A stretch of 64,000 bases of DNA from Rhizaria sp. SCN 62-66. Lineage: Eukaryota. The notes under the pieces were generated by a model, which made no database searches, was not told the DNA's origin, and was given only the letters and a program-made list of their open reading frames with translations. How positions within the stretch are numbered: position 1 is the first letter of the stretch; each line of letters starts with the position of its first letter. The stretch is from assembly GCA_001724265.1 (NCBI GenBank), contig MEDY01000318.1, positions 1 to 64,000 on the forward strand, in the 5' to 3' direction. A program made the position numbers and the translations under genes. Below, one piece after another: positions 4,306 through 55,765 of this stretch.

Positions 4306-5108
4306 TGTGGGCAGCAGGTGAAGATGCGCAGAGGGGATGCAGGAGTGACAGACGCGAAAATGTGGCAGGCAGAGCGCGCGGCGACTACTGAAGTGATGGC
4401 CGCAGATCCAACTGCAAGTTTATCTCAAAGACCAACTGCACGTGACTATCAAGGATTCAATAGTGTTAGCTCAGTCAGTAGCTTGATAAAGTACTATCTC
4501 ACAGTCCCGAGCTACAGATGTGTCCTCTGGCGCTTGCTTTGTGATGCTGCAGCTGATTGAGGAGTCGGGAGATAGAGTCTTGGACGAGTGCAAAGAGGTG
4601 CGATTCATAAAGTCGGAATATACCCTTAGCAGAGGACCTAGAACATGAAAACAAAATATATCCTCGATACGTCATAACCATTTCAATAACCCATGCCAGA
4701 TGCTCGAAACATCGGATCCTAATCGAGATATACGCCTTGAGATATTAGCGCGGATCGGCTTGGCAGAGCGAGAGTGAGAGGCGGGGGCGAAGACTGAAGT
4801 GACGGTTCGCAAAAATGTGGATCGATTCGCGAAACAATCGCTGACGAAGCGTCAAATCCATAGACAAAAGAATCCCCGAACCTCCGTTACTAGATGTAAC
4901 ACTCGTGTATGATATATTACGTATGCTATTCTACACGAATTTGAATTTAGAATTTCTTAGGCGCTTACTTCTCGTGCGCTGCTATCATACTTCCTTATGG
5001 GCCTGAACCATGGCTCACCCCGTAACTCCTCTTTTCCCGCACGGCACCCCACGTCCTCATACTGTTACTCTCTGTTTTTCCACGTGAACCGCAGACCCAC
5101 CCCGGCCG

Positions 5109-5870
5109 ATGCGTTTCCACGCCGTCACCTTGGCTGTTCTCGCAACGGCCCTCCTCCTCGCATCTTTCCTCTCCGCTGCCGCCGCCGCCCCCGCCAAGGC
5201 TACGAAGGGCAGCAAGCTCAACAATGACGTCAAATGCGGTGTCTGCTCCACTTTGCTTAACGCTCTTGAGGACCGCGTTGCCTCCGCTGCCCGCGAGCAT
5301 CCCTACGACGTCCTCTCACGTTTCCGCCTTGACGAGAAGCGGAAGGTTCCCTACTCACGCTCTGAGACCTTCATCGAGTCGTTGCTAGACTCCCCGAGCT
5401 CGTTCTCATCTCTGTGGAACAAGCACGGCTTCCTCCGCGCCGCTGCGGCCCCCATGCGCCTTGTTCCCCGCGATGGCGCTGGCTCAGACCCGCGCGTCCA
5501 ACACTCGACCGCCATCCGTAACCAATTCGCTGCCATCGCGGCTGACATCTTCGATGACCACGTCGAGGCGCTGTCCCTCGCGCTCGCACGCGCACGCAGT
5601 CGGGATGCGGCCGTCAAGTCGTTCTGCGTCGAGAGCTATCGGGCGTGCACTGAGTGGCCTGCCGTGTGGGGCGAGGCCACGGACCCCATGCCGGAGCCTG
5701 AGAAGCCGAAGGAGGAGGAAGCTAAGCCGCAGCAGGAGGATGTGAAGCCGGCGGCTACTGACGCGGCTGCGGAGGCTGGGTCTGCCCCTGCCGATACCGC
5801 TGCAGCTACGGAGGCGGCGCCTGCTGCTGCTGCTGCCGCGGTTGCGACGGAGGCTAAGGATGAGCTTTGA
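5109..5870 (+). CDS. Canopy/CNPY-like (saposin-like, DUF3456) ER-luminal protein
   Basis: Single exon with an N-terminal signal peptide, KCGVC..RFRLDEKRKVPYSRSE and FC..C motifs, and C-terminal KDEL followed by TGA. Confidence 0.8.
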   Translation: MRFHAVTLAVLATALLLASFLSAAAAAPAKATKGSKLNNDVKCGVCSTLLNALEDRVASAAREHPYDVLSRFRLDEKRKVPYSRSETFIESLLDSPSSFSSLWNKHGFLRAAAAPMRLVPRDGAGSDPRVQHSTAIRNQFAAIAADIFDDHVEALSLALARARSRDAAVKSFCVESYRACTEWPAVWGEATDPMPEPEKPKEEEAKPQQEDVKPAATDAAAEAGSAPADTAAATEAAPAAAAAAVATEAKDEL

Positions 5871-10906: not shown

Positions 10907-11442
10907 TACGAAGGTGTGAAGGGAGCAGAGACGCGCTTTGTGTGCACTGGTGAAGGCTGTGGTTGGTGCGGGGAAGGCGGCGGTGCGTGATTAAACAGGG
11001 TTCGCTGTGGCGATAGTGACCGTTGTTAGCGACTGCGATATTGAAATGATACACAAGGTTCACGTGTGAGCTTTTTCTCTTTTTAACAATTCGTCTCTGG
11101 TCGCTCTTAATGCTTTGTTTCACCTTTCTCGTCCGGCATAGGACGAGACGGTCAGACCCCAACTCGCGCGCCGTCCACTCAGCTTAACTATCTTCATACC
11201 TCGCGAAAATGACTCTCCCAGGACGATCTGCTTTGTATTTTCATTTTCCACAATGCATTAATACTATTTCCTTTGATTGCATTTCACGATCTCAACTTTC
11301 TCGTCCTCTATCGCCCTCTTTGTTGCCCTCCGCTCAGATCCGTTAGTTACAGAGCTCAAACACAGCTCTCATTCCCGCAACCCACCAGCGTTCCACCCAC
11401 CTTTCTCTGACACGCACCGACTCGCGTGTATTGCTTCCGCGC

Positions 11443-14400
11443 ATGTCGCAGCCCTCCGACGGCGGCAACAACAACGCTGGCGGTCACAGTGGCAGCGGCA
11501 ACGCTGGCTACTCCCGCTCGACTTCGTCCACAGCTGACTGGATCTCGCGCCAGAAAAAGGTACATATCTCAACCAAATCTCTCCATATTGCAGTATACCT
11601 TCACTGTCAACAACAAAAACTCTAATTTTCATTATTTCCTTCTTTTTATTTCATTTTAGATTGTTGGTAATGACAATGGCAACATTGCTGCCGCGGCCTC
11701 AGCTGCCGCGAAGCTCCGCGCCGCCTCTGCCTCTGCCAGCGCTGTGAGTCAGCATCAACAACAACAGCATCAACAACAGCGCCCCGCTGCCAAGTACACC
11801 AGCAAGGACATGATTGGCATGAAAGTTGCCCACTCACTCTCCGACCTCGGCCTCAACAACAACCCCTATGGTGACGATGATGACGGCGATGGTGGCAGCG
11901 GCGCTGGAATGGGGCAAAAGGGGGTGATGTTGACGCTTAAGGACCGTGAGACAGGGGTTTTGACCAAGAAAACCGTCCGTGGCATCGACTCCTTCTTCGA
12001 CGACGACGACGGGACTGACTCAATCTTCAGCTCTTCGAAGCCTAAATCAAGCAAAAACACCGCTAACGCTCACGATGACGACGACGAGGATGAGCTTGTC
12101 TCCATCGACATCTTAACCCAGCAAAAGCAGGCCAAAACCAACGCTCTTCGCGCCACAGCGAAAAAGGACGTCTACAGCGCGTATAAGAGTACTGCTGACT
12201 CCGCCGCCAACGACACTCTGCTCGCCCACTACGATGACTACGACACCGCGAATTACGGCAGCTACAACGACAGCAACGGCTCCGAGCAGTCCTCCGGGAC
12301 TGGCGACAAGAAAGGCGGGTTCATTCGTGTCGGTGTGAAGGGCCACAGCGGTGACGAGGGGGATTTTACTGAGTCAGCAGAAATGCGTGACCGTGCCGAC
12401 CGGGCCCGCCGTGGAGGGGCGGAGGCCTTTGCAGTCGATATCACTCAGGGCGGCTTAACTTCCCGCGACTACGACACTGGTGATGGCGGTAGCGAGAACA
12501 ACACCAACAAGACGCATACGTATCAGTCTGATTTCGAGACTCAACATCACGCGAGTGCAAGCGTTGGCTTTAAGAAGAAGAATAAGAACAAAGCCAATAA
12601 CAACCACGGTGAGATTGGCAGTGATGCGAACGGTGGTGCCGTAGGTTCGAGCCGTGATATCATCACCTCGCTCACGAACGCAGCCGGCAGCGGCAACAAC
12701 AACAACAACACTGCTGCTGATGCTGTTGTTGGGGAGAGTGTAAGTGGTGGCAGTAGTGACCGTGGCAACCGTGGCAGTCGCCGTGCCCCTCTCAACCCTC
12801 TGTCCACGGGCATCACGAGTACTGGTATCACGAGTACCGGCGGCATGAGTACTGTCGCAGGGACTTCCTCGGGTGCGAGTGTTTTGGCAGGCGCAACTGC
12901 CGACGAGCTTATCGCTGCGAAAAAACAAGCGTTACGTGACTCTGCGTACATGAAGGCTCTCCGGTCTGCCGAAGAGCAAACTCGCTTACTCTTACTTCCC
13001 GCTGGCTCCTCTTCTTCTGCTGCTGCTCGCGGCAGTGGCGGCGGTGGAGTGACCGTGGGCACCGCGAGTACCAGGGCGGGGGGTGTTCCGAGTACTGGGA
13101 GTTATAGCGCCACTGTGGAGAGTGAAGAGGCTGACTACGCGGCTGCGCTCACAGTCACCAGTGCTCCTCCCCCGGGAGTAATCGTGAGCAGCACGGGTAC
13201 CCTCACGGGACCCACGGGTACCGGCGGGGTGAGTGAAGTTGCGAGGCGTGCTGCCTTAATGCGGCAACGTGACGCAGAAGCAGCTGCCAAGGTCAAGGCG
13301 GAGGCTGCGGCTACGGCTTTGGCGTCAGTTGTCACAGACAGCGGCGCCCAACTGACTGTGAGCAGCTCGGGTACTGTTGGGGTCATGGGTACCCCTGCTG
13401 CTACGGTGAAGCGTGAGTACTCGTCGTTTATGACCGATGACGATATCATCAAGCCCGAACCTCGATCTAATGCCGCAACGGCCACTGCCACTGCGACTGT
13501 AACGGTTACTGCAACTGCGATGACTGATAACGACGCAAAGCCTCTCTTGCCTTCAAGCAACTCGCACAACGCCACCACAAGCACAACCGTCAAGCCAGAG
13601 CCTGCTTCTGCTTCCACTTCTGTCTCGGCTTCTGCTGAGTCAGCAGCAGCAGCGGCAGCTGAGATGGAACTGCGCTCACTGCGCCCTGATGCCACTTCAG
13701 CTCGGGAGTCTGCAGCTTATGCCGCTGCCTCCGCCGCCGCTGACGCCGCCGCCGCTGACGCCGCCGCCGCCGCCGCCGCTGAGAGCGCCAAGACTCAGGT
13801 GGAGGCTGATGCTAGTGGGGAGACGGAGCCTGCGAGTGCTGAGTTCAATCCCCGGTCGATGGCGGCCGTCTTGGCGATGGCGCGGCAACGGGGCCTGCTC
13901 CAGAGTAGCGCCAGCGGCGCCGGACAAGCCGGTCGCCGGTTGGAAGGGCGGGCTAAGGACCGCCGGACGGGGAGTTACTACGACGACTCCGACTCGGACT
14001 CGGACACCGATGCTGCCAATGCGAGTAACGCACAGACTAACGCCAGCGCTCGTGGCGGCCGCGGAAACAACAACAGTAACAACAATAATAACAACCGTCG
14101 TGGTGGCGGTGGTGGTAATGCGAACAGTGGCGAGCTTGTCATCGATGGGGTCGTCGTCGACACAAACGTCCACAAAAAGTTCGGCAAGATTGATCTAAGG
14201 TATACTGACAGTGAGGGTCGTGAGTTGACGCAACGTGAAGCCTTCCGTCAGATGTCCCACGCGTTCCATGGCACTGATGCCGGCAAGCGCAGTCAGGAAA
14301 AGGCGTTGAAGCAAAGGCAGATGGAACTCAAGCAGCGTGCCGCTGCTGCTGCGGCGAGCTCGATCTTCACTTCCAGCAATAACAACAACAGCACCAATGG

Positions 14401-14860
14401 CGCTGCGAGTGCTGTGGGATCCAGCAGCCTTAACGTTACTGGTGCGGCGGCGGCGATGGGTGGATACGTTGAGCTTGAAGATGGCAAGACTGCGATGCAA
14501 CGCATGGTGCAACTGGCTCGCGCAGGCGGCCTAACTTCCGGAGGCGGCCTAACTTCAGCGCAGCAAAGCGTCAGTGCGGGCGTTAAGGCTGAGCCTAGCG
14601 CTGCTCCTGCTGTTGGCGATGTTGCTGCCGCCGCTCCTGTCTATGCATCAACTCAAAGCGTAACCACCCAGGCGAACACTATTTTTTCTCGCTCAAGCTC
14701 GAGTCTGACTGCTGCGTCTGCTGCGGCGCCTGTCGCTGCGGGTGCGCCGGCTGCTGCTGTGGGTGGGATTGGTAGTGGCGATGCGCTGGGTCGCCGTGTT
14801 GGCGGGAAGATTGCACTGTCTTTGGCGCAGCCGACTGCAAAGAAGCCTCGCCTTCCTTGA
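11443..14860 (+). CDS. SART1: U4/U6.U5 tri-snRNP protein SART1/Snu66
   Basis: Exons 11443-11559 and 11660-14860. Motifs GMKVAHSLSDL, VMLTLKD and the conserved C-terminal block IDLRYTDSEGRELTQREAFRQMSHAFHG..GKRSQEK. Stop TGA. Confidence 0.88.
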
Positions 14861-15362
14861 GTCGCCACGTTACTAATCACAAAAACAAAGATATATCGCC
14901 ACCCGCAGTTATAAGGAGGCTTAATTTAGTACATAATTATATTTTACGTTGCAATACATATTATAGCAAGATTTTAGTTCGTGATAATGTGATTGGCGCC
15001 TGCTCTCGCGTGCAACAAATATGATTGACTCGAATCTGGCGTGGGGTTCCGAAAAAAGCTGTGGCGAGTTGCAGCCTGAATGAACGGCGCGGGCCGACCA
15101 ATGACGAAGAAGGCATATTTCAAGGGCATAAAAGCCAATATTCCACTCGACAGCTTGGAATGCCGCGGGTGTCTTGGGCTGTATGCGCGTGTTATTAACC
15201 TCTCATTTAAGTTTTGCTTTAACCAGCACCTGTGAAGGTTTCCAATTCCGCTCCCGAGCTAGTCCCTCCAATCGTGCCGATGACGAACCCTTTCCGACTC
15301 ACGCTTCCCCGCTCCTCCCCCGTCCTAATCCTCTTGTTCCGACCCGCCACAGACCCCGCGCG

Positions 15363-17756
15363 ATGCGCTTCGCCGGATACCTTCTCTGCCTCGTGTTGGC
15401 CTCTTCGGCCTTCATCTTGGCCACCGCCGCAGCGGCCGCCGCGTCCCACTCCAAGTCAAGCTCCAGCAGCAACAGCAAGCACTCTGCCGCCGCCAAGGCT
15501 GCTGCTGTTGCTCTCTCCTCCTCCGCTCCCGCCGGTTTCAACACCAAGACGTACGCCGCCGACGCCAACATCCCCATCGTTCCCCCCGAGCACCTCAAGC
15601 TCGAGAGCGTCTTCATGTTCGGCCGCCACGGTAACCGCGCTCCCGACCCACTCGTGGCCACCGTCTGCCCCAACCGTGCCGTCCAATCGAAGTTGTACAA
15701 GAAGCAGGGCTGCGGCCCCGGCGCGATGACCAACGTCGGTCTCCAATCCATCTGGGACCTCGGCACCTTCACCCACGATCAGTACGTGAAGACGGGCTAC
15801 GTGCCGAGCATGTACAATCGCCAGTTCGTCAACGTCCGCGCCGCTGCGTCTGACCGCACGCTCATCTCCGCCTCGGCGTGGGGGCAGACGGCCTTCCCGT
15901 CCCCGCCGCCCGGCGCACCCGCGAGCGCCCCGTCGATCCCCGTCGCGACTTTTTCGGTCCCTCCGACGCAGGATAACGTCGCCGAGGTCCGCAAGGCACG
16001 CTGTGCCGCCCGTCTTGAAGAGGATCTGGCAGAGTTTGACGCTGAAGCGGCACCGAAGCTGCTCGCCCAGTTCCGCCCCCTCATCAACAAGGTGTCCGCG
16101 GCCTGCGGGTTTGACATGACCACGACGCCCGAGGTGACTCACGGGGAGTTCTCGGTGCTCCAGGCTGTCAAGGACATTGCCGATGCGCTTACTGGTGACT
16201 TCCTTGAGGGCTTCCCCCGCATGGAGGGACTCTCTCAGGTACGTTCATGTCTTTGTACTCAACAAAATGAAAATAGGTTATCAAACTTACTCGCGAAACT
16301 TGATCTATCTACTTGTGCTTTTCCAAAATATTATTATATTCCCTCATGATATCTCATGTTCTGTTCTCACCCCCATCCTCGGTCTTTCTCTTTCTCTTTG
16401 CTTGGCTTTGTTTCCTCACTCCAGGCTGATGTAGAGGAGTTCCTCGCGTTCGCCGAGCTCATGTTCCACAAGCGCCACTACGGCGGCCGTGCCCAGCCCG
16501 CCTACCTCGCCGGTGCCGCCCCCAACCGCGTCGTCAAGATGTTCGACCGCCGCGTCTCGTGGAACGCCAACGAGACAGCCCGCGCCCTCTCCCTCCCGTC
16601 GCACCACGCGGCTCTGGCCGCCGCCGCCGAAGCTGCGGCCGCCGAAGAAGGCTCCGTGCTGCCCGTCAAGGCCCCTCGCCGCGTCTTCGCCTTCCACTGC
16701 CACCGCGAGATCCTGTACGGCTTGATCAAGTTCCTCGGGCTCCGCGTCGATGTTGCGCGCCCCGGCCTCCCGCGCGGACTCGTCCACCCCGGCTCCGGCA
16801 TCTTCTTCGAGCTGTGGCGCGACCCCGCCGCCGCCGAGGCCGCGCAGCTGGCCAACGCTGAGGAGCCCGCGCTGGACCCGAACCGCGCCAACAAGCTCCG
16901 CTACGAGCCCTCCCCGGTCGACGCGGGATACTACGTCCGCGCCGTCGTCTGGGTCCCCTGCTGGCCCGGCGACGGGGTCTCCACCGCGGCCAACGATACC
17001 GCTCCCGCGTATTGCCCCGGCCGCGTCCGCGTTCTGCCTGGCTGTGGCGGGACGGAGTTCTGCCGTTACGACCGCTTCAAGCAGCTTCTGTCCGGGAACT
17101 TCAAGGCTGTCGGTGGTGACTTCCGTCGTCAGTGCCCGATGGAGCCGGAAGGCGCTGAGGTCGTCCTGGCTGCGGCCAAGCAGAAGGCTGCTACGGCCGC
17201 TAAGAAGGCCGCGACTGCTCACGGCCACAAGGGCAAGGGCAAGTCCGCTGCTCACGGTCACAAGGGTAAGCATGGTGCGGCGAGCCACAAGCTCATGATG
17301 CTCGAGTCCGCGGGTACCGCCGGTACCCATGCTGCTCACGGTCTCTCCGCCGCGGACGCCGACGATGACTCTGAGGCTGCGCTGCACGCTGCCGATGAGG
17401 ACGAGGACGTCGCTGACGCTTACGCCGCCCTTGCTGCGGCCTACGGTGCTCCCCCGATGGCTTCCGCCGCCGCCGTGCCACCCGCCTACAAGGGGATGAC
17501 CCACGCCTTCACCCCGTCCGTCGCCGCCGCTACCGGCGGCTACGGGGTCAGCGGCGCTGGCGTCGGCGCTGGTGTCGGGATGAAGGCCACCGGTCCTATG
17601 GGTACCTCCGCGGGCTTCGCGACGGGTGTCAACGGTGCCGGTGTGGGCTTCGGCGCCGGCGCCGGCGTCGGCATGCCCGGTGGCGCTGGCGCCGCTCCGG
17701 GGGGCGGTGTCGGCGTGGGCGCGTGGGTGCAGCGCGCTGCTGCGTTCATCAACTGA
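15363..17756 (+). CDS. Secreted histidine acid phosphatase (branch 2) with a Gly/Ala/His-rich tail
   Basis: Exons 15363-16238 and 16425-17756. Signal peptide, catalytic RHGNRAP, DRTLISA and a second motif CHREIL. Stop TGA. Confidence 0.88.
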
Positions 17757-20151: not shown

Positions 20152-20983
20152 GTCGTGCTCTAAAAACCACAAAATAAAAACAGTGTGCAACGTGGATATG
20201 AGTGCATTATCCAGAAAATGAAATATGTTGCGATGTAATGAGATGTTTAGGTGTTTCGGCGTGGCCGGAGGCTTCAGGAAGCAAAATGCACCGGTGTCGG
20301 ACTAGCCCAGCGCAGTGTAGCAAGCAGTTGCAGCGGGATAACAGCGGCCCTCGCATAGCCAGCGTGATGGGACATGCACGTGTAGCGGAAATGAGTGCTA
20401 GATGGCCAGGCTTGGCAGTCTGTGGCAGCCCGGCGTTCGGGTTCCAGAGGCGTGGGCTCAGCCCCCAGAGAAGACAAACAAAGTGCTCTGTGGAAACTAA
20501 GATCGTCGAAAGGCGCCTTATAAAAAGCACAACTAATTATAGAAACACCATTACCCTTGGAAATCGTCATGGCTGCGTTATCTGTCGATGCCTTCCGGCC
20601 TTTTCCGGTAGGGCCCGAACGCTGATGGGGCCATCAAACCAAGCCACCACAAATCGCCTTGTGACTGTGAGCATCAGCTGACCGCCGAGACTGAGAGACG
20701 AGTTGCAGTCAGATAGGCGAAGACCAGGGGGTGTGAATCAGCATCTTAGCGCAACCCGGCGTGCTTTCTGTCCTAGTGGTTTTGCGGATCTGCTTTATGT
20801 CAGAGATGTTAACAACAATTTTCTATCTAGTCTCTATTTTGCATGCGTACTGACGAGCGTTCCAGCGCGCTGCATGTCTTCTCTCACTTCCCGCTCCCCG
20901 CCGTTGTCTCACTCCCCCTCTCGCCGCTCCCACCGACCACTTGCTCCGCTTCCCGAACTCCAGTCCACCAGCCCGCGCAGCCC

Positions 20984-22770
20984 ATGGTGTCCTTCCCGCC
21001 CGCGTCCTGCGTTGCGGCCTCGCGCTTTGTGTCGCCGCGGTCCCGCTCCTCTGGCGGCCTGATTTCCCTCCTCGCTCTTGTCGTGGTATGCGCGCTTGCT
21101 CTGTTCGTCACTCCCGCCGAGGCCGTGCGTCGCCGTCCTACCAAGATGTCCAACAACCCCGTCTCAACGCAGTACACGCCCGAGCCGCACCACTCGCTTC
21201 ACGCCCCCATGGACACGTCGCAGTCGTACTTCACTTTCGGCGGCTCCACTGTCGCGACGAAGAAGTACATGCGTCTTACTCCCTCCACCCAGGACCGTAA
21301 GGGATTCGTCTGGAATGAGTATCCCATGGAGTCGGACGACTTTGAGGTTGAGGTCAAGCTTGAGATTTTCTCTACGCCACACTTTGGTGGTGATGGTATG
21401 GGTATTTGGTTCCTGAATGCTGAGCAGGATCCCTCCGTTTCGTCCGAGCCTTCCGCTCTTCAGGTGCGTTCCTTACTTCTTCTTCCAACTCATATAGCTC
21501 CACGACATATACTCTCCTCCAGAAATGTCGCTGATGTTAAGTTATCATAACTTCTATTGTATTATATATTCGAAAATCATTTCTATCAGCTGAGGTATAC
21601 GCTCACTATCTTTTTTTTGTTTACATGGAAAACAGGGCAATATTTTCGGCATGCGTGAGGATTTCAAGGGTGTCGGCATCTTGCTCGACGTCTACGACAA
21701 CGACTCCAAGCGCAACAACCCGTCCATCTTTGTTGTCAAGAACGACAACGGCAAGTTCCAGTACTCCCACGACCAAGATTTCGAGGACGCAATGCTCCGC
21801 ACTGTCCCCTCCAGTCTTAAGATGGAAGGCGCTACACAGGACTCCTACCGCTGCGTCGCCGATATCCGTAACTTACACCGTCCTATCAAGTTACTCGCGA
21901 AATACCTCAACCGTGTGATGCACGTGTATCTTGATACCGAAGACGGTCAGGGCTACCGCCTCTGTCTTGCTGTCGAGATCCCCGGCCAGCATCCCACTGA
22001 TCCCACCAAGTCCACGCTGAGGGACTCGCACCTTGTCTTCACCGCCGCCACCGGCCAGGTACGTTCCTTTATCTGACGGTAAAACAAAACTATGTAATAT
22101 AATTTGTCATAATCTCTCTTACTCCTTGTTTTTAGAATAAGATTGTTCAATTCGTCGAGATTCCTTCCTAATCCGTTTCTGACTCCCACCCATATCTGTC
22201 TTTTTGGCTTAATTTTGTTTCCGTTCGACCCGACTGATTTAGGTTGCTGACAACATGGACCTCGTTGAGATCACCACTCGCTACCTCAAGAACACCGACT
22301 CCCGCCCTGACATGCGTGAAATCGGTTCTTTCGGCTCCTCCGGCACCGGCTCCCTCTTCGCACAGTTGTTTTGGTTCATTATCACACTCCTCGGCATTGG
22401 TTTCCTCGGACTCACGGCCTACGAGTACCAGGAGTACCGCGCCATGCTGCGTGACCACGTCGATGCCGTCGCCGTTGCCCACCGGTTGAACGCCTACACT
22501 CTCCCCCACTTTTACGCTCACTGCGGCGTCTCGCTGTGTCTCCTTCTCTCCATGTCCTGGATTGCGTTCGCCATCAACGCGCCTCTGCTCATTGTCCGCC
22601 TGGTTCTGCACAAGTACGGCGCGCTGATGCTCTCCTCGGCTCAGATTGCGCGCTTCTCTGCCCGTGGTAGCGGTATCCTCGGCATGAGCCCCGACTCACG
22701 GTACTTCCTTGCACTGGGTACCTATGGTATCGCGGCTCTGGTTTACTGCTACCAGCTCTTTGGCAACTGA
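20984..22770 (+). CDS. L-type lectin (VIP36/ERGIC-53-like) domain fused to a C-terminal cornichon/Erv14-like domain
   Basis: Exons 20984-21463, 21636-22058 and 22243-22770. Lectin motifs YMRLTPSTQDRKGFVW, GGDGMGIWF, GNIFG..FKGVGILLDVYDN and AATGQVADNMD, then RDHVDAVAVAHRLNAYTLPHFYAH..SWIAFAINAPLL (cornichon-like). Stop TGA. Confidence 0.85.
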
Positions 22771-26708: not shown

Positions 26709-29700
26709 TCAGCCACGAACAATGTGCGAGGCGAGGTGCTGCAGCGACAATCCGCCAACAGCATCTTCGACAAGTGCGTTCTTGAACCAGGCGTCCTCGG
26801 GCTCATCCTCCTTGACAATATGCACCTGTAAACAAGCAATAACAAAAAAAGAAGAAGAATTAAACGTGAGATTTGAAGCACATAATAAGCTCAATCGAAG
26901 CAGAAAGCAATGAGAAAGATACCAAATCAAACATATCACACATAATGTGGAGCTAAATGCGAGACTTGTGGAATTTGGGGCGTACCTCCTGGTAGTAGGG
27001 CGAAAGCCGGCGCAGATAGTCAATCAGTGCGCGCAACCGTGCCGCGTGCGAGCGCGTGTCCTCCGCGGGCGGCGCACGCAGGCGGAGCACCTTGCCGGGG
27101 TACGCCGAGACGTCCGTCATGCCGAAAAGATCGTTGAGAATTGCAGGATTCACAGCGCGACCGATACGGAGGATGAAATCGATGCCGTTGTCGACCAAAT
27201 ACACGCCCTCAGGGGAAATGTGCTCGATCGACAGTCCAACCTCGGCCGGCAGCAACAGCTCGCCCGCGTTGGCGGCCGAGTCAGTGGACGTGTTGGCAGC
27301 GGCGGAGGCGGAGGAGATGACGCATTCGTCACCGGCGAACGCGTGGATGGGCAGAACACGTGGGCGCGCGTATGACTCGAGCTCGACGAGACCCATCGCC
27401 ATGACCTTGTACAGCGCCGCGCAACGGGGGTCTGGCCGGGACAGGTCCTACAGTGAATGCGACGGAAAAACAAAGCCAAACGAAGATATCAGCATGAGGC
27501 AACATCAAATACCGGTAGAAATATAGAAAATACATCACATTGGAGAATATATCTGCATGGAGGTGGTATTATCAAGATAGATAGAGTGAAAGACGTACTT
27601 GGCGGAAGGCATCGGACTTGAGCATACCAAGCAGCATGACCGACAGCGGCCCCAGAGTGCCATAATCATACGTATTCGCATTGCCGACCATCGTCCGATA
27701 TGCACGGAGGATGTTCACGACGCGGTGCAACAGCTGTGTGCGTGCCTTGACGACACCGAGAGCCAGCGCGTTGGCGACAGCCTGCTTGGACATGAGGTTC
27801 ATCGCCGCGTTGACGTTGGTCGCGTCCATCAAAGCTTTGACGGAGTGGATAACGGGCAGAGGGATGGTCAGAACGCGGATGCGACGCTCGCCGAACGCGG
27901 ACGTGTACAGAACACCAGCCTATATATCAATCGAGCCATTATTACAACATAATGAGACCAGAGATGAGTGGAGACAGTGAAATGAGAAGATCACAGAAAA
28001 AGTAGATATTGCGAGATATCATGACATTGCAATGAAACAAAAACATTAAATGAAGCTAGAAAATAAACAATTTTCTTTAGAGGTCGTAGGAATATAGAAA
28101 CGCGGATATTAAAAACGACGTACCTGGACGTAGGAAGCGCGGAAAGGCAGATCCGTATCATCGACACCGAGCTCCAGCGTCAGCGAATGGTCGCACGACA
28201 CGTGCGGCAACACGATGAGGTCGTTCGAGCGGAGCGAAAAGTTGCCATAGATGTCCGCGATCGCGACAAAACGGCTGGCGCGGACGCGGATGACGGTCTC
28301 CCAGCAAGAGGGGCGCTGCAGAGAGCGTTCGAGAGTTTTCGCCAATTTGACCGGCGCCGTGGGGGGGATGAAGTGCATCTCACCACCCGTGTAGATCGGG
28401 AGATCGTTCAGCGAGGACACGTCAGTGTACGTTTGCCCGGCCGATAAGTACACATCCACGCAGATCTGGGCGCGGGAGAAAGTCAGCGCGAGCCACTTGT
28501 ACCATGGGATCTGCGACCGGTACAAGGGAAGCTCGTCGTCAGCTGTCTTCCGGACAGTCGTCGTTTCGCGGTTGACCAGGCGGCCGGGCGGAAGCGTCGG
28601 CAGGCCTGAGAGGAACGAGACGATCTTTCCGCCGTATGTTGCCACGATCTTGGCCGCGACGCAAAGGGCGGCTCCGTACGCAGTCTCCATGTCTGCCGTG
28701 ACGCCGCTCGAGTGCATCGTCGGCAGCTCTTGCAAGAGGCACCGCGTGGCGTCGCGGCACGCGTCGAGCGAGACGCAGAGCCCGTCGGGCACCGGCAGCC
28801 TCGCCCCCGCCAGGAGCTGGGCGAGCGTCGGCGTCACGGGCTTCGCCCCCGCGCTGCCGCCCGCAGCGGCGGAGCCGGGGGCGGGGGGGGCAGGCTCCTT
28901 GAGGTGGAAGTCGTCAGTGTTGGCGATGACGTGCATGTGCGGGTACGCGGCGCCGGGCTGCATCTCGTACACGTGGACGGCGCTGTCGAAGGTCACGAAC
29001 GCGACGCGGGCGCGCTTGCTCTCACGGCCGTACAGCGAGTCCAGGCTCTCATTGATCGTCTTCGCGATGACGGCGAGAGTGCCCGAGCGCTGCGCACCCG
29101 CGGAGACGTCGATGACAAAGACGTACGTCGGAGGCATCGGAGGCCGGTTCTTGGCGGCGAAGTAGTCCTCGGGAGCGTCGACCTCGTACGCACCAGTCAC
29201 GAGCTCCGGCCGCGCCGCGAGGTCCGTCCGCACGCCGTTGGCGTCCAAGGGGGCAAAGTAAGTACTCGGGACTTCGTTGTTGCGTCCGCAGAAGTTACAC
29301 CGCCACGAAGCGCCGCCGTCGACGAACGTGACGTACGGGTTGATGTAGGCGCGGCAGCTCGTCGTGTTGCAGCGGATCACCGTGCCGCCGTAATTAACGA
29401 CGGGCAGCGGCCCCGCGCCGGGCGGCGGCTTGGCGAACGGCCGGACGACGAGGCCGAACGGAAGCTGGGAGCGGGCCTTGAGCGTCGCGTTGCCGGGGGC
29501 CGCGTTGACCGTGGCACACATGTACTTCGGGTGGCACGGGGACGCGTACGAGGGCAGGGGGGGCTCGTTGCAGGCTGGCGCGGTGGTGGGCAGCGGGCCG
29601 GCCAGGTCCTGCGGCCCTTGCGGCTGCATGGGGGGAAACTGCTGTTGCTGCGGCTGCTGCGGCTGTTGAGGTTGGCCGCCCATAGTGGGAGGTGGGGGAA

Positions 29701-30663
29701 AGCCGGGGCGGGCGGCGGGGGCGCCAGGGAGCGACTGCGCCGAGAAAGGGTTCGGCGCATTCAAACCAGGAGCAGCGGCAGCAGCGGCAGCGGCGGGGGC
29801 GGCGGGCATGCCCGGCATCGGGGGCATAACGTTGGCTGACGCGGGCATCGGGGGAAACGCGTTGCCGGCGGGGGCGGAGGCGGCTGAGGGGGCAGGAGCG
29901 AATGCGTTGAGGTTAGGCATCTGCGGCATGCCAGGAAGCTGAGAGGTGGCGGCCGGGGCGGCCGGGGGGGCGGCAAAAGGGTTAGCTCCAGCTGCGGGGG
30001 CGGGAGCGGCGAACGGGTTAGCAGCGGCAGCGGCAGCAGGGGCGGTGGCGGCAGCGGGTGCGGCAATAGGGGCGGGGGCAGCGAAGGGGGCTGGGGAGGG
30101 GCTGGGGCGGCGAAAGGGGCTGGGGCGGCTCCAAACGGCGCTGGGGCAGCGGCAAAGGGGGCCGGGGCAGCGAAGGGCTTCGGAGCGGCGGGGAGAGCGA
30201 AGGCGTTGGCAGGAGCGCCGAAAGGATTCGCAGCAGCAGCAGCAGCAGCAGGAGCAGCAGGAGCGGCGGGGGCGGGGGCTGCGAAGGGGGCGGCTGGGGC
30301 CGCGAACGCGCTAGGGGCAGAGGGAGCGCCGAAGGGGTTGGGTGCGGCGCCAAAGGGGGCCGGGGCCGCGAAAGGAGCGGGGGCAGCGCCGAAAGGAGCA
30401 GGAGCAGCGGCGGCAGCGGGGGCGGGGGCGCCGGGAAAAGCGCCGAAAGGGTTGCTGGCGGCAGGGGCGGGGGCAGCAGCGACAGGCGCGGCGAAAGGGA
30501 CAGCAGGAGCAGCAGCGGCAGCGCCGGGAAAAGGCGCGGCAAAGGGGTTAGGCGCGGCGGGGAAAGCGCCAGGAGCAGCACCGGGGACGGCGGCCGGGGG
30601 CGCGAAGGTCGCGAACGGGTTGCCCATGGCGCCGGGCGGGGGGACTCCGCCGATGCCAGACAT
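26709..30663 (-). CDS. SEC24: COPII cargo adaptor Sec24 (apparent frameshift near 30097 in the Pro/Ala-rich N-terminus)
   Basis: Exons 28124-30663 (with frameshift), 27599-27919, 26986-27447 and 26709-26825. Zn finger RC..SCRAYINPY..WRCNFCGRNNEVP, vWA YVFVIDVS, AGVLYTSAFGERRIRV, gelsolin-like GVYLVDNG and terminal LVED..LQHL. Stop TGA. Confidence 0.95.
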
Positions 30664-33522: not shown

Positions 33523-36500
33523 TTATAGTAGTTTGCGGACGAGGTTCTTGTGCATGCGACGTAGTGTCTCATTTTCCTCAAGCAACATATCACGCTGTGC
33601 AGTCAGTGCCATCACTGGCGACGACTCGTGCGAGCGTTCATAGACAGCGGAGGAGCTGCGTTGTGGACTGACATGACTGTGTGTGTGTGAAGTGTTCGTG
33701 TTACTGTTGTTGTTGCTGTTGTTGCTCTTGGCAACGGCGCCAACACCACCGCGAAAACTCATGTGGTTTTGGCTCATATGACTGTGGTGCGCAGAGTGTC
33801 CGGCTCTAAAGCCTGATTGATACACTGCCTGTGCATGCGCATGTGCTGCAGCTGTAGCAGCAGCGGCTGCTGAGTTGTCGTCGTAGTCACTGTCCGCGAT
33901 GCCACTGGTGTTGTGTGCATTCACAGCACGGGAGCTGCTGCTGCTGTTGTTGTTGTTGTTATTGTTGTTGTGCATTTGACGCGTCGGCGTTTGTGGCACA
34001 GCGTACGCGCTGTGGCTGATGTTGCTATTGTTTACATTATTCGCGTGAACAGGGGTCGCAGCAGTGCGCAAGATAGGACTGACAGGCTCATATGCATAGG
34101 AAAACACGTCATGCTTGAACACACTGTTTCCCGAAGGTTGTGACTGGTGTAACGGTTGCTGTTGCTGCTGATGCTGCTGGTGATAGAGTGCAGTCACTTC
34201 GCGCATCGCACGTTCACGCGCCGCAGAAGCAATCTGGCTCTCAGTCGCCGAGGCCTCACTTTGAAGTGAGGCGGCTTGACTTTGAGCCGCAGCCAGCTCA
34301 GCCTTAACAGCGTCCACCGCAATCTTCGCAGTGGCAGCTTCAGTCTTAGCGGCGCTCGCTTCAGCCTTTGCAGCATCAGCTTCACTGCGGGCCAATGCGA
34401 GTGACTGGCGCTCGACAGTTAGCGCAATCCGCTCCGCCGTGAGCGCGTCTTGCGAGGTCCGCAGTAACGCGGCAAGCGCGGCGGCCTCGGTCTTGCCTTG
34501 GTCGGCGCGGGCGGCATCGCTGGACTGTGCCGTGGCAAGCTGTGCAGTGAGGGAAAGACACTTGGACTCTGAGGCTAAGTTCTTTGACTCGAGATCCAGG
34601 CACTTAGACTGCAACTGAGCACACTTTGCCTCAGCTGCCGCATATTTGGATTCAAGCGCTGAAAGCTTGAACACAGCGTCGTTGTACTTCGACTCAAGAG
34701 TAGAGCACTTAGCGTCAAGGAAAGAGTACTTAGATTCAAGTGCGGAGTACTTAGAGCGTAAATGCGCTTCCGTCTCTGCTGCTGCTTCTGCAATCTCAGT
34801 CGCACGCCCCTCGGCACGAGCCACCGCTGCCGCTGCTGCCGCTGCCGCAACTCCACTACGACCCGCCGCAGTGCGAAACTCATCATTCTCACCCCGCACA
34901 ACATCTAGCGTCGCCTTGGTCGCTGCGAGAGTTGCCGCAGTTGCGTTCAAGTTCGCAGTCGCTGTCTCGAGTTGAGCCATCGTATCGTCAAGATGAGCCT
35001 TTGTTTCATCAAGCTGCGCAGTCGCGTCGTCAAGCTCTGCCTTGGTCGCTTCGAACACATCCCTTGATGCCCGCAGCGCACTGATAGCAGCGGCAGCCTC
35101 AGCATCAGCGCGCTGCGCCTGCGCGCGCACTGCCGCGCTCTCACTCCCCGCGGCCGCCAGCGCAGTCCGCAGCTGCTGCAGTTGCGCGACCGCAGCCGCC
35201 AGCCTCTCGCGGGCCTCCTCAGCATCCGCAGTCGCTGCAGCGGCTGTGTCAGTCGCAGCGCCGGTCGCACCACGCGCCGCCACAGCAGTTGCCGCCGCGG
35301 TCTCTGCCTCCGTCACAGCTGCAGCGGCGGCAACAAAAGCCTCGGCGGCCGCAGCTTCGCTCTGACGCAACGCGGTCTGACTTTCAGCAAACGCAGCCTT
35401 GCTTTGCGTCAACGCGGCTTGACTTTCAGCCAGCGCGGCTTGACTTTGCGTCGCCCACGCCTCCGCGTCGACAGCGCGTGCCTCAGCCTCCGTGACCCTG
35501 GCGTTCGCCGCGGCCGCCGCTGCAGTCGCCGCGGAGGCCGCAGCAGTCGCATCCGCAACGCGCGCTTCTGCGCCTTCACGCCGCGCCTCTGCAGCCGCAC
35601 ATTGCGCCGCGCATTGCGCCACGCACGTAGCCAACGCTTCCTCCGCGGCCACAGCGCGCGCAGCGAGGACGTCGCACTCGCCGTCGCGGGCAGCGGTCAG
35701 CGCAACAAGACTCTCGTTAGCAGCGGTACGCGCGCTGTGGCCACGCAAGGACTCTTCTGCAAGCGCGGCTTGACTTCGCGCCAGAGCGGCCTGACTTTGA
35801 GACAAGTCGGCCTGCGTGCGGGAAAGTGCGGCTTCGGTCTGCGCGCTCAAGGCCTGGATTTGCGCAAGCGCAGCTTGACTTTGAGACAACGCGGTCTCGC
35901 ACTGAAACAAACGCGTGCGCGTCTCACTTAACGCCGCCTCAGACTGGGCGCACGCGGCCTGACTTTGTGCCACCGCAGCTTTGCTTTCAGCGAGTTCAAC
36001 CTCCTTTGCTTGAGCATGCTTCACAGCGTTCTTGAGCTCGCTTTGTGACTCTTGCAGCAGCGATTGAGCTCGGCAGAGCTCGCTCTCACGCTCAACACAC
36101 GTAGCCTCACTCTGCTTCAGAGCATCTTCAGCCCGCGACAACGTATCGCACAACTTTGCACACTCAGTCTTCGCAGCGGCGGCCTCGCCATGCGCTGCTG
36201 CAATTGCAGAGTCCGCTGCAGCGGCTGCAACGCCACCGGCGCGCCTGACCTCAGCCAGTTCCGCGAGCGCTGCCCGTGTCGCCGCTGATGCCGCGGACGC
36301 CTCGATACGCCCTTCGCGCGCGCCCGCCGCAGCCGTGTCAGCAGCAGCCTCCGCGGTGTTGCGCGCTGTCACAGCTGCGGCAAGCGCAGTCTCAACCTCG
36401 ACAAGCGTGGTCTCAGCAGCGAGCTTAGCGGACTCTGCAGTAGCTTTGCCGTCGATAGCGGCGTCGCGTGAGATCGCTAGCGCACTGCACCGTGCCTCCG

Positions 36501-39500
36501 CTGCGGCGCGTTCGCTTTCTGCAGCACGGAGCGCACGGAGACTCTGAGCAGCCTCTTGTAACGCAGTCGTAAGCTGGGTCTGTGCAGTTGCAACAGCAGC
36601 CTCAAGCTCAGCCACACGCAACCGCAGTGTCAAAAGCATCGACTCTGCATTCGCCTGCTGCGCCAGCGCAGCAGTTGTTTGCGATTGAGCCTCCGTCTTC
36701 GCGACAACAGCGTCATTGGCAGCAATGAGCGCATCCTTGAGCTTTGTGTGGAGTGCTGAGATTTCGCTGCGCACCGCGTCAGCCTCCGCGCGGAGTGCAA
36801 TAACATCGGCGCAAAGTGACTCGACGTGACCGCTTGTCGCACTGCGCCCGCCCTCAGCAGCAGCAGCGTCAAGCCGGGCAGCTGTGGCCTCATTCCGCGC
36901 GAGCACAGCCTCAGCGCGCGCAGCGGCCTCGCTCTCACGCGCCGCTGCAGCTTCACTGTGCGCCGTGTTGGCGTCATTGCGCGCTGCAGCTGCGTCCTCC
37001 CGCGCAGCGGTGACGGCACCGCGGGCCTCCGCGGTTTCAGTGCGCGCTTGCGCCAGCGCTGCCGCCGCGGTCTCGGCATCAGCCCGCGCGGCAGTCACAG
37101 ACGCGGCAAGCGCGCTTTGCAGCTCTGTAACGGCGTCACCAGCGGCAGAGAGTTCAAGCGCGAGCGCGGACTGCTCAGAACCCCATTGCGCGCGTTCAGC
37201 ATCTAGCTGCGCCTCTAAGTGCGCACGGCGCTGATCTAAGTGGTCCGCTAAGTACTGGAGGTTTGCAAGATCGGACTGCAGTTGCGCGCATTGCTGCTGA
37301 AGCTGAGAACGCTCAGTTACCCAGGAGAGCTCACGATCACGATCACGGTCACTGCGCTCACGCTCACGGTCATCACGGAGCATAGCCAAAGCGAGCTCTG
37401 TCGCAGATGAGTCGTTCTTCACCGTGTCACCCAAGTTCGCTGTCGTCGGTAACGCCGACGCAGAGGTTGCAAGTAAGAGAGCGTGCGCAGACCGGAGTGC
37501 GGTTAGCTCCGCAGTTGTGTCAGCGAGCTGTGCTACAGAGGCGCTATGATTGCTTTGTAAATTTGCAAGCGCGGCAGCAAGCTCAGCCTCCTTCTGCGCA
37601 GTGTTCCCGTTGTTGGTGGCAATGATGCTCTTAGCATTGTTAACCGCCTTAATGGCATCAAGCTCCTCAACGAGACTTGCGCGTTCAGCCTTGATCTCGT
37701 CAAGCGCAGTCTCTAGGGCAGTCCGCTCTGCTTTTGCAGCAGTCTCAGCAACAGTCAGCGTACTATCGCGCTCTTGTTGTACCTTGTCACAGACACTGCG
37801 AAGCAGCTCACAGTTGCGTTGAACTTGTTCGAGATCGGCAACAGCCTGCACACACTCCGTCTTGGCAACATCACGCTCGACGACAGCAGTATCACGTTCT
37901 TTCACTGCAGCATCGCGCTCTGTAAGTGCGCTGTCACGCTCAGCAGCGATCGTGTCACGTTCAGCAATAGCGGCGTCGCGCTCAGTCACTGCAGCGTCGC
38001 GGGAAGAGAGTGCAACAGCACAGTCTACATGAACGCTTTCGTTCTCAGCCACAGCAGCGTCACGCGCTGCAGTCGTCTCGCCGAGCAATGTAAGTAGCTC
38101 TTGGCACTTGGAGGTCGCCTCGTCGCGCTCTTGCTCTGCACTTGCACGCAAAGTTTCGCTATTTGCAAGACTCTTCTCTGTATCCAGACACTTCTTCTCG
38201 AATTCACTACACATCGATTGCAGAACTTCGCACTTTGAGCGCATCTCATCACACGTGGCTGCTAACTCGTCGTGCTTTGACTGCTACAACTCACTTTGAC
38301 TTTGAAGAGTCTTGTTCTCAGCCTGACACTCGGTTGCCTGAGCGAGCAGTGCATCGCGTTCTGACTTCAAACATGCGTTTTCGGATTGCAGAAAGTTGTA
38401 CTGCGCCTGTAGACTTTCGCATTCCGAGGAAACACCAGAGGCTGCCTGCAGTGCCAATTGCAATTTCTGCATCAGCGATGCAGCCTCAGCCACAGCTGCT
38501 TCCTTTTCAGCAGTGAGAACCGCTAAAGCTGCTGCCGATCGAGTGTCCGCCTTAAGAGCAGCCTCAGCCGCAGCCGCATTAGCGGTCACAACAGCTTCAG
38601 CGACCGCAGCAGCAACTGCGTTAGTGACAGCAACACCGTGGGCTTCGTCAGCCTCAGCTGCAGCTGTAATCGCAGCCGCAGCGGCGTCAGTTGCAGCCTG
38701 CAGGCGCACAGACTCGCTCTCCTCAAGCGCGGCCTGACTTTGCTTCAGCGCGGCTTGAGTCTCGCGAAGTGCAGCCTGACATTTCTGCGACTCATGAGCT
38801 TTCTCATGCGCCGCGGCTTGACTTTGCTGCAGCGCGTTGTCCTTCGCAGCAGCAACCTCTTCCCACTCAGCCTACGCAGCGGCATGACTCTCGCGCAACG
38901 CGGCTTGACTTTCGCGCCACTCAGCGATAACTTCACTCCACTGTGCCTCACGCTGCGCAGCCGCCTCCGCCGCCTCAGCCGCTGCTTCAGCAGCTGCTTG
39001 CACGGCGGCCTCGGCTGCTGCCTGCGCAGCAGCCTCGGTCTGTACCAACGCGGCTTCGTTGTCGTACAACGCCTCTTTGGTCTCTGCCAGCGACGCCTGG
39101 CACTGCGTCAGCGCGGCTTGGCTTTGCTCCAAGGCAACGTGAATGTTTTCCTGCTCAACGTGAGACTGGTCCAACACGGCTTGACTTTCCGCAAACGCGG
39201 CGTGACTTTCCTCCAGTGCAAATTGGGTGTCATCTAGTTGCGCGCGCATGCGTGCGAGTTCTGCCTCCGCGCCCTGCTTGGCAACCTGACATTCATCGAA
39301 CGCGGCTTGACTTTCCGTGACGGCCTGTTTCATCTGCGCATGCGCGGCCCGCATCACCCCATGCGCCTCAGTCAATGCGACATTCGCCCTCTCCATCTGC
39401 TCACAGTCGTTTTCCGCTTGCGCCATCCGCCGTTCCGCACGCACAGCCCTCGCATTCGCACGCCACGTTGCCATGGTGATCGCCAGTCGCGCGCGAGCCC

Positions 39501-42500: not shown

Positions 42501-43407
42501 TGTTGCCGCCACGGCGACGACGCTCACGGCCAGCCCGCAGCGCGTGTACCTGTGAGCGAACCTGTGACTGCAAGTGTGACTGCAAACCAGAGGTACTCAT
42601 GAGTCGCGGTCGCGGCACTGTGGGGAGAGCGGGCGGCGGTGGCGGGAGCGGCGCGTAGATTGCAGCCGCTTCCGCCTCAAAGTCCTGCCGTGACGGTCCA
42701 AACTGCTGATGTTGCTGCTGTTGCGGGGGGAGTGGTAGTCCCGTTATCACACCTGTATTGTGGCCGTGAGCGTGACTTTGGCCGTTGCCGCGAGCGTGTA
42801 AAGATATGTCGCCAGTACTCACAGTAACGGCGCCAGGCGCAACAGTAAGCGTGATCCCGTCACCACGAGCACTGCTCGTTGGAGAAACAGATACTGCATG
42901 AGGAACAGTGGTTGAGGGCGCGGCAGGACCATACGTCACGCCGACAGCGCTATCACTCGCGCTGTCATCGCTCTGCAACGCCCCACGCTGCGCATCAGCG
43001 CTCCCGGCAGCCACAGCGGACGCGGAACGCGCAGCGGCAGACAACTGCGGACGCTTCGAGTGCACGCGCACGCGCACACGCGCTGCGTGCGCTGCGCCTG
43101 ATGCCAGTCCGAGGCGCGCGGCGTCAAGCACCGCAAGAGCGCCAGCGGCGGCGCGGGACGTGTCCGACTGTGCCGTCGAGGCCGTGGGAAGTGACGCAGC
43201 AATGCCGGGTGCAAGCGGGTTGAAGGGCACACTGGAGGCACAGGCAGTGATGGTGGCGGGCGGCGGACGCGCAGAGAGCAGTTGTGGTGGCGGGGGATCA
43301 AGGCCGAAGGGCGCGGGAGCCAGAATAGGGCTGGGGGTGAGGCCCGGGGCTGGGGTGGTCATTGCACGGGTGCTATACCTCGCGAAAAGCGCGTGCTGCG
43401 GGTGCAT
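33523..43407 (-). CDS. Giant (~3294 aa) protein with Sfi1-like LxxWR repeats and a long coiled coil, read through three in-frame TAG codons
   Basis: ORFs 42247-43407, 38872-42057, 38284-38709 and 33523-38244 share one frame. They are separated only by TAG at 42247-42249, 38872-38874 and 38284-38286, and the linking codons are open and of the same composition. Stop TAA at 33523. Confidence 0.8.

Positions 43408-55733: not shown

Positions 55734-55765
<32 letters not shown>

Follow-up and report, generated by a model that had tools for sequence, protein, structure and literature searches.

Gene structure of the lectin-cornichon fusion

The sequence analysed here is a stretch of 64,000 nucleotides (nt) from Rhizaria sp. 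SCN 62-66 (positions 1 to 64,000 of contig MEDY01000318.1, assembly GCA_001724265.1), which we call the window. On its forward strand, at 20984..22770, lies a three-exon gene whose product begins with an L-type lectin and ends with a complete module of the cornichon/Erv14 family, and it is confirmed that both are encoded by one gene as one polypeptide. The gene is made up of the following parts:

20984-20986 (+): start codon ATG, read from the sequence
20984..21463 (+): exon 1, 160 codons, encoding the start, the signal peptide and the first part of the lectin
21464..21635 (+): intron 1, 172 nt, GT..AG, phase 0, AT-rich
21636..22058 (+): exon 2, 141 codons, with the central and C-terminal lectin strands including the Ca2+ and sugar loops
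22059..22242 (+): intron 2, 184 nt, GT..AG, phase 0
22243-22770 (+): exon 3, with the last lectin strand, a linker and the whole cornichon module
22768..22770 (+): stop codon TGA; the homologue P0001 terminates at the same residues (...YCYQLFGN)

The 5' ends of the introns read GTGCGTTC (intron 1) and GTACGTTC (intron 2), and both 3' ends are AG. The window is eukaryotic in make-up, with GC-rich exons and AT-rich introns and spacers; in this gene the GC content is about 0.5-0.69 in exons versus about 0.39-0.44 in introns. The spliced frame has 476 codons and zero internal stops. If intron 1 is left unspliced, an in-frame stop is met at 21548-21550 (open reading frame (ORF) end 21550), and if intron 2 is left unspliced, an in-frame TGA is met at 22074-22076 (ORF end 22076). 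Compared with P0001, a 449-aa homologue from other public assemblies, the spliced protein is identical at 324 of 428 positions (76%), and the alignment is gap-free over both splice joints.

The joint between exons 2 and 3 is crossed by the string AATGQ, continued on its far side by VADNMDLVEITT. The last lectin strand is encoded in exon 3, which thus holds both the final strand of the lectin and the entire cornichon module, and the domain boundary lies inside this exon, away from any splice site. An earlier note on this DNA, made from the letters alone, had placed the gene at 20984..22770 and had described a lectin whose final strand runs into a cornichon domain within one exon, with no stop between them and no KKxx or FF tail. 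All of this stands: the gene starts with ATG at 20984 and stops with TGA at 22768-22770, the 476-codon frame is uninterrupted, the strand in question is modelled at E276-288 of P0001, and the C-terminus carries neither motif.

Signal peptide and lectin domain

The features of the luminal part are as follows:

20984..21124 (+): predicted signal peptide, residues 1-47, with the core LISLLALVVVCALALFV, then TPAEA ahead of VRRR
21392..21394 (+): Asp137 in a GGDG motif, counterpart of ERGIC-53 Asp121 (P0001 D112, invariant in 36 of 36 sequences)
21687..21704 (+): D-V-Y-D-N-D motif, Asp178 to Asp183, with Tyr180 and Asn182, aligned to FDSFDND of ERGIC-53
22243..22284 (+): last lectin beta-strand VADNMDLVEITTRY, opening exon 3 (the strand E276-288 of the P0001 model)
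22285..22353 (+): luminal linker of about 23 residues, LKNTDSRPDMREIGSFGSSGTGS, with a predicted local distance difference test score (pLDDT) of 67-80 in the exon 3 model

A hydrophobic segment was found at residues 20-50 of the window protein by the Kyte-Doolittle scale (score 2.8), and an N-terminal hydrophobic stretch is present in all full-length relatives. The cleavage site of the signal peptide, placed from the sequence alone, is putative.

The Pfam family Lectin_leg-like (PF03388; cut-off 24 bits) matches exon 1 with 51.1 bits (residues 69-148) and exon 2 with 46.1 bits (profile positions 93-195 of 230), while P0001 as a whole scores 107.9 bits in a match that reaches residue 288. The family profile finds ERGIC-53 (1gv9) at E 1.6e-38 and VIP36 (2duo) at E 1.2e-35. 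P0001 was modelled with AlphaFold2 (AF2) from a 36-sequence alignment (pLDDT 83.6). The best Foldseek match of this model is VIP36 (2e6v_C; E 5.3e-22, template modelling score (TM-score) on the target 0.84), and ERGIC-53 is found at E 3.4e-21; for matches to the carbohydrate-recognition domains of VIP36 and ERGIC-53, E lies between about 1e-20 and 5e-22 and the target TM-score between 0.8 and 0.86.

In the part of the literature source used here (PMC3912170), the mannose contacts of ERGIC-53 are given as Asp121, Phe154, Asn156, Gly251, Gly252 and Leu253, and its Ca2+ loops as residues 155-161 and 176-185. Through the alignment of P0001 with ERGIC-53, the counterparts in the window protein are Asp137, Tyr180, Asn182, Gly300, Gln301 and Val302, in the same order, and around the last lectin strand TGGLADDHDV of ERGIC-53 is aligned to TGQVADNMDL. 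The counterparts of Asp121, Phe154, Asn156 and Gly251 are invariant in all 36 family sequences, as are D153, Y155, D156, N157 and D158 of P0001. More generally, the GGDG, D-x-Y-D-N-D, N-P and H-D-x-D motifs and two cysteines are invariant or at least 90% conserved in the 36 sequences, and H205 and D208 of the Ca2+ region are present in the window protein. The two conserved cysteines probably correspond to the disulfide cysteines of ERGIC-53. Since the residues that bind sugar and Ca2+ are intact, the lectin domain looks fully functional.

Between the last lectin strand and the first transmembrane helix (TM1) there is no coiled-coil stalk in the models of P0001 and exon 3, only about 23 poorly ordered residues. 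This linker is without a long secondary-structure element in the exon 3 model, and both its length and its sequence are variable across the family.

The cornichon module

The features of the C-terminal part are as follows:

22354..22767 (+): complete cornichon/Erv14 module, the C-terminal 138 residues, recognised by Pfam, profile comparison and the AF2 model
Helices of the module in the AF2 model (exon 3 residues): TM1 38-70, TM2 75-102, TM3 106-124, TM4 150-174
22582..22584 (+): proline in INAPLL, exon 3 residue 114, counterpart of Erv14 P76, at least 90% conserved in the family
22645..22659 (+): the cytosolic loop between TM3 and TM4 reads I-A-R-F-S where Erv14 has its COPII (coat protein complex II) motif I97-F98-R99-T100-L101

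The Pfam family Cornichon (PF03311; cut-off 29.2 bits) matches exon 3 with 41.8 bits, with residues 43-137 lying on profile positions 3-97 of 122. The Pfam search that the earlier note proposed thus puts both domains above their curated cut-offs, and its assignment of 22360-22770 to the cornichons is borne out by hidden Markov model (HMM) and fold alike. A profile of 13 C-terminal domains (the window and 12 loci) covers residues 4-138 of the 142 in human CNIH1 (E 2.5e-16) and residues 5-127 of the 146 in yeast Erv14 (E 3e-13).

The structure prediction that the note had also suggested gave a four-helix cornichon fold for the exon 3 product (AF2, 46-sequence alignment, pLDDT 89.4). Ranks 1-10 of the Foldseek search against the PDB are all CNIH1, CNIH2 or CNIH3, with probabilities of 0.93-1.0 and target TM-scores of 0.56-0.77 at weak E-values (0.045-1.5). 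The exhaustive VIA search also ranks CNIH1 first (Z 12.4, root-mean-square deviation 2.4 Å, 132 of 142 residues, 17% identity); this match is tied with generic four-helix bundles, so the fold alone is not decisive. For P0001, too, the ESM Atlas model resembles that of a cornichon cluster (TM-scores 0.67/0.81). The module forms the C-terminal third of a 476-aa protein, unlike a small stand-alone cornichon.

Landmarks of Erv14 were taken from a preprint on the cryogenic electron microscopy structure of Erv14-Qdr2 (PMC13640594); its part used here describes a kink proline in TM3 (P76), an acidic Site 1 (D29, E31, D33, Y34, E39) and a Site 2 (D93, E96). Besides the kink proline, the LN motif before TM2 is kept, in which Asn83 of exon 3 corresponds to Erv14 N45 (at least 90% conserved in the family). 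Further matches are Arg81 with K43, Ile135 with I97 and Arg137 with R99, and Erv14 F18 is aligned to Leu55, next to Phe54. Of the IFRTL motif, the isoleucine and the arginine are kept in the window protein (IARFS). The matching stretch of CNIH1 is without IFRTL, so the motif is a feature of Erv14 and not family-wide. The residues at Site 1 and Site 2 are largely changed, which marks the module as a divergent subfamily.

Topology

Both termini of Erv14, that of TM1 and that of TM4, face the lumen of the endoplasmic reticulum (ER), as described in the part of the preprint used here (PMC13640594), and for this reason a lectin joined to the N-terminus of a cornichon is topologically natural. In the window protein, the loops that follow TM1 and TM3, which are predicted to be cytosolic, contain arginine and lysine clusters, as judged from the sequence and the exon 3 model. 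A predicted signal peptide and a luminal-type lectin ahead of TM1, together with these basic loops, are consistent with luminal N- and C-termini. No di-lysine or di-phenylalanine tail is present; the C-terminal ...YCYQLFGN is predicted to be luminal, which would explain the missing cytosolic tail signal.

A family of fusions in uncultured protists

Many uncultured protists have the lectin-cornichon fusion. When exon 3 was used for a full HMMER scan, 50 proteins were found at E up to 1e-3, and 49 of them were scanned with Pfam after exclusion of the window's own P0002. Both domains are contained in 30 of these 49 representatives, 24 of them above both curated cut-offs. Cornichon alone is matched in 15 of 49, several of which start in the last lectin strand or in the linker and look like fragments, and P0049 is a canonical cornichon (146.9 bits; E 1.8e-4 in the exon 3 scan). 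Four long proteins with no Pfam cornichon match (P0012, P0031, P0042 and P0050) were judged spurious, probably due to low complexity, without inspection of their sequences. An extra ADH_zinc_N domain in P0008 looks like a run-through gene call.

A profile of 11 full-length fusions finds 32 proteins (E up to 1e-10), of which 30 contain both domains. The family is diverse: identities to the exon 3 product go down to 13-30%, and the GC content of the loci varies between 0.29 and 0.63. In the exon 3 match list, canonical cornichons are confined to the lowest places, which fits a distinct, fusion-type cornichon subfamily, probably of single origin.

The same architecture is also found in uninterrupted ORFs. 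For example, the locus L010, on a 420-kb metagenome contig, contains at 3941-5305 an ATG-to-stop ORF of 454 aa with Lectin_leg-like (129.2 bits) and Cornichon (30.9 bits), and the encoded fusion is 51% identical to P0001. Nine candidate ORFs drawn from 39 related loci were scanned in total; both domains are present in 8 of 9 and above both cut-offs in 7, and the ORF of L012 contains the lectin only. In intron-bearing relatives the junction likewise lies within an exon (L011, residues 91-448; L022, residues 235-324).

Members of the family are annotated as "hypothetical protein" at most. No published description of a lectin-cornichon fusion was found in full-text literature searches, which do not extend to subscription journals, InterPro or UniProt; the papers that share the search terms, some of them judged by title and abstract only, handle the two receptor classes separately or deal with other topics. 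The ESM Atlas lists no cluster with both Pfam families, and, as it indexes large clusters only, it is mute on novelty. The earlier note had reasoned that a widespread architecture would end the novelty of the gene: the architecture is indeed widespread in environmental protist sequences (the 30 of 49 representatives above), but the literature searches gave no description of it and its members are unnamed.

Transcripts and gene-catalogue entries

Contigs of the polyA metatranscriptome X1 lie on exon 1 (20944-21208) and exon 2 (21731-21959) with at least 99% identity, and the match of an X2 contig ends exactly at the exon 1 donor (21464), which is a weak hint only. Among the four runs compared with the gene, no RNA contig covers exon 3 or the introns or bridges either joint, which is neutral on the exon 2-3 junction. 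Public catalogues list two separate proteins here, one of 171 aa from exon 3 (P0002) and one of 235 aa from exon 1 (P0080). We read these split entries as what intron-blind gene calling is expected to produce.

Contigs similar to the window (at least 99% identity) are present in activated-sludge and wastewater runs of two studies, and the locus L019 is 100% identical to the window across 1,256 shared bases. One of them may be the source of the window itself.

Proposed function and alternative explanations

We propose, with moderate confidence, that the fusion protein is an ER-to-Golgi cargo receptor in which the lectin takes up N-glycoproteins and the cornichon module gives entry into COPII vesicles. 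The lectin would capture high-mannose N-glycoproteins in the ER lumen in a Ca2+-dependent manner, like ERGIC-53 and VIP36. The cornichon module would anchor the lectin and stand in for a single transmembrane helix with a cytosolic FF or KK tail, and its cytosolic TM3-TM4 loop would be shown to Sec24, by which the receptor and its bound cargo would be taken into COPII vesicles. We infer glycan binding, COPII coupling and cycling for the fusion protein. With the acidic client patch of Erv14 lost, it is probably the lectin that mainly determines which cargo is taken. The earlier note had likewise supposed that the lectin uses the cornichon module to enter COPII vesicles, a reading with which the topology is in agreement.

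Several observations weigh against a cargo receptor of this kind. In the 13 members compared, the IFRTL region keeps only its first hydrophobic position, and the arginine is present in 3 of 13. Beyond the closest relatives of the window protein the motif is poorly kept, so it is uncertain that Sec24 would be bound in the known way. Site 1 is reduced to a counterpart of D33, in a loop whose family consensus is basic; at Site 2, D93 and E96 are replaced by Ser and Gln in the window protein. A search with the single sequence gets to Erv14 at E 0.004 only, the protein contains no recognisable retrieval signal, and no transcript joins the lectin and cornichon parts, the RNA contigs being confined to exons 1 and 2. 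A joint structure prediction of the exon 3 product and a fragment of the Sec24-type protein encoded in the window (28112-29413, -) scored 0.00, which favours neither side.

A further reading, which we put forward tentatively and regard as doubtful, makes the protein a coincidence detector. The lectin would read an N-glycan and TM1/TM4 would read a membrane segment, so that only folded, glycosylated membrane proteins would be presented to Sec24. Such receptors would be an old and widespread class in protists that could replace ERGIC-53-type sorting and part of Erv14-type sorting.

The losses at Site 1 and Site 2 and the variable IFRTL region would also fit a non-cycling, ER-resident lectin (VIPL-like or active in quality control), whose cornichon part had lost its receptor and COPII function and served as a mere anchor or retention device; the lack of any recognisable cytosolic tail motif for export or retrieval points the same way. 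However, relatives with only 13-30% identity to the exon 3 product retain the whole four-helix module, with the kink proline of TM3, the LN motif and the basic residues on either side of the TM3-TM4 loop. This is unexpected for a mere anchor, and a single helix is enough to anchor a lectin, as in VIPL. We therefore consider an ER-resident lectin unlikely.

Distinctly less probable is a role after the ER, in the Golgi, in endosomes or at the cell surface, either as a VIP36-like sorting lectin or as a cornichon auxiliary subunit with a glycosylated membrane partner. VIP36 is reported from pre- and post-Golgi pathways in the part of PMC3912170 used here, and the animal proteins CNIH2 and CNIH3 stay on AMPA receptors at the surface (PDB entries among our matches), but the lectin residues are those of early-secretory high-mannose binders and no post-Golgi signal is apparent in the sequence.

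Finally, a gene-model artefact, in which one gene, for the lectin, would stop in intron 2 and a second, for the cornichon, would begin at Met306 (22255), would agree with the separate catalogue proteins P0002 (exon 3) and P0080 (exon 1) and with the lack of any RNA contig bridging 22058/22243, but it is very improbable and was rejected, since such a lectin would be without its last beta-strand (encoded in exon 3), the splice sites are canonical and of phase 0, the alignment with P0001 is gap-free, and the same architecture is found in intact, uninterrupted ORFs elsewhere.

Comparison with known receptors

Known L-type lectins of the early secretory pathway are single-pass receptors for soluble glycoproteins that use signals in their tails, and cornichons are small multi-pass receptors for membrane proteins that bind Sec24. 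In ERGIC-53 a long coiled-coil stalk is combined with a single transmembrane helix and a KKFF tail in the cytosol. Like ERGIC-53/LMAN1 and yeast Emp46p/Emp47p, the fusion has a luminal L-type lectin (PF03388) with the same fold, with counterparts of the ligand residues and with both cysteines, and with ERGIC-53/LMAN1 it would share the presumed role, the capture of N-glycoproteins for ER export. Unlike ERGIC-53, it is without a stalk, and a four-helix cornichon with a C-terminus predicted to be luminal stands in place of anchor and tail.

SURF4/Erv29, a multi-pass receptor by which soluble luminal cargo is exported in COPII vesicles, is a functional analogue of the role proposed for the fusion. 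It differs in having an unrelated fold and no lectin domain, and in recognising peptide motifs instead of glycans.

VIP36/LMAN2 is the best structural match of the lectin and is likewise joined to the membrane by only a short luminal segment. Where ERGIC-53 has Gly252, the window protein carries a side chain (Gln301), as VIP36 would with Asp261, an assignment we infer from the part of PMC3912170 used here. In contrast with the fusion, VIP36 and VIPL cross the membrane once, as type I proteins, and their cytosolic tails are short.

With Erv14 and CNIH1-4 the fusion shares an end-to-end family match, the four-helix fold, the TM3 proline, the LN motif and the basic positions K43 and R99. The known cornichons are stand-alone proteins of 140-190 aa that bind membrane clients via TM1/TM4 and an acidic cytosolic patch, whereas the fusion has a luminal domain of about 290 aa ahead of TM1, a neutral or basic stretch in place of the acidic patch, and IARFS for IFRTL.

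Other genes in the window

A Sec24-type COPII gene is located at 28112-30547 (-), about 5.3 kb downstream of the lectin-cornichon gene on the opposite strand. Its product has a Pro/Ala/Gln-rich N-terminus and matches Sec23_trunk (169.2 bits), zf-Sec23_Sec24 (57.1 bits) and Sec23_BS (30.2 bits). The closeness of these two genes is probably a coincidence, and we do not count it as evidence. Upstream, at 15132-16346 (+), lies a histidine-phosphatase (His_Phos_2) gene, and such a gene also lies beside the fusion of L010 (5690-8461, -); this adjacency may reflect conserved synteny between related protists.

Two very long frames on the reverse strand, 33523-43407 (-; 3,294 codons) and 45084-52976 (-; 2,630 codons), are open but for four in-frame TAG codons:

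38284-38286 (-): in-frame TAG, first frame
38872-38874 (-): in-frame TAG, first frame
42247-42249 (-): in-frame TAG, first frame
47148-47150 (-): in-frame TAG, second frame

A fifth TAG (52974-52976) is the first codon of its frame, just upstream of the likely start methionine. The four internal TAG codons stand in ordinary coding-looking context with no flanking GT..AG, and every long frame that was checked terminates in TAA or TGA, none in TAG. The lectin-cornichon gene has zero in-frame TAG codons and a TGA stop, and no conserved protein in the window contains a TAG. Together, these frames suggest that TAG may be reassigned to sense, or read through, in the nuclear code of this GC-rich protist.

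The first frame encodes a 3,294-aa Ala/Gln-rich coiled-coil protein (33526-43407, -) with no Pfam match, in which three of the TAG codons are found. The second encodes a 2,630-aa protein (45087-52976, -), also with no Pfam match, whose N-terminus resembles a signal peptide and whose C-terminal part has a transmembrane segment; it contains many Ser/Thr-rich repeat modules and a Cys-rich EGF-like region, and may be a large surface glycoprotein. At 54303-59585 (+) there is a 1,761-aa open frame with a diacylglycerol acyltransferase (DAGAT) domain at its extreme C-terminus only (residues 1536-1754), and it has either an unusually long N-terminal extension, or unrecognised introns or neighbouring exons. 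A TAF6-like gene (1328-4048, -; TAF6_C, 112.8 bits) and a SART-1-like gene (11411-14857, +; 91.7 bits) both contain long low-complexity inserts rich in Ala, Ser and Asn. The Rfam scan of the window gave zero matches.

Significance

In summary, the fusion points to a receptor class that is seemingly common in uncultured protists and is not known from model organisms. As a conserved natural fusion, it provides independent evolutionary evidence for a luminal N-terminus of the cornichons. It also suggests that the cornichon module alone can give COPII entry to a foreign luminal binding domain, and such a module would separate the coat-coupling role of cornichon from its client-binding role. The fusion is experimentally tractable, with intron-free homologues usable as ready constructs. 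If the coincidence-detector reading were true, cornichon would be a portable module for COPII entry.

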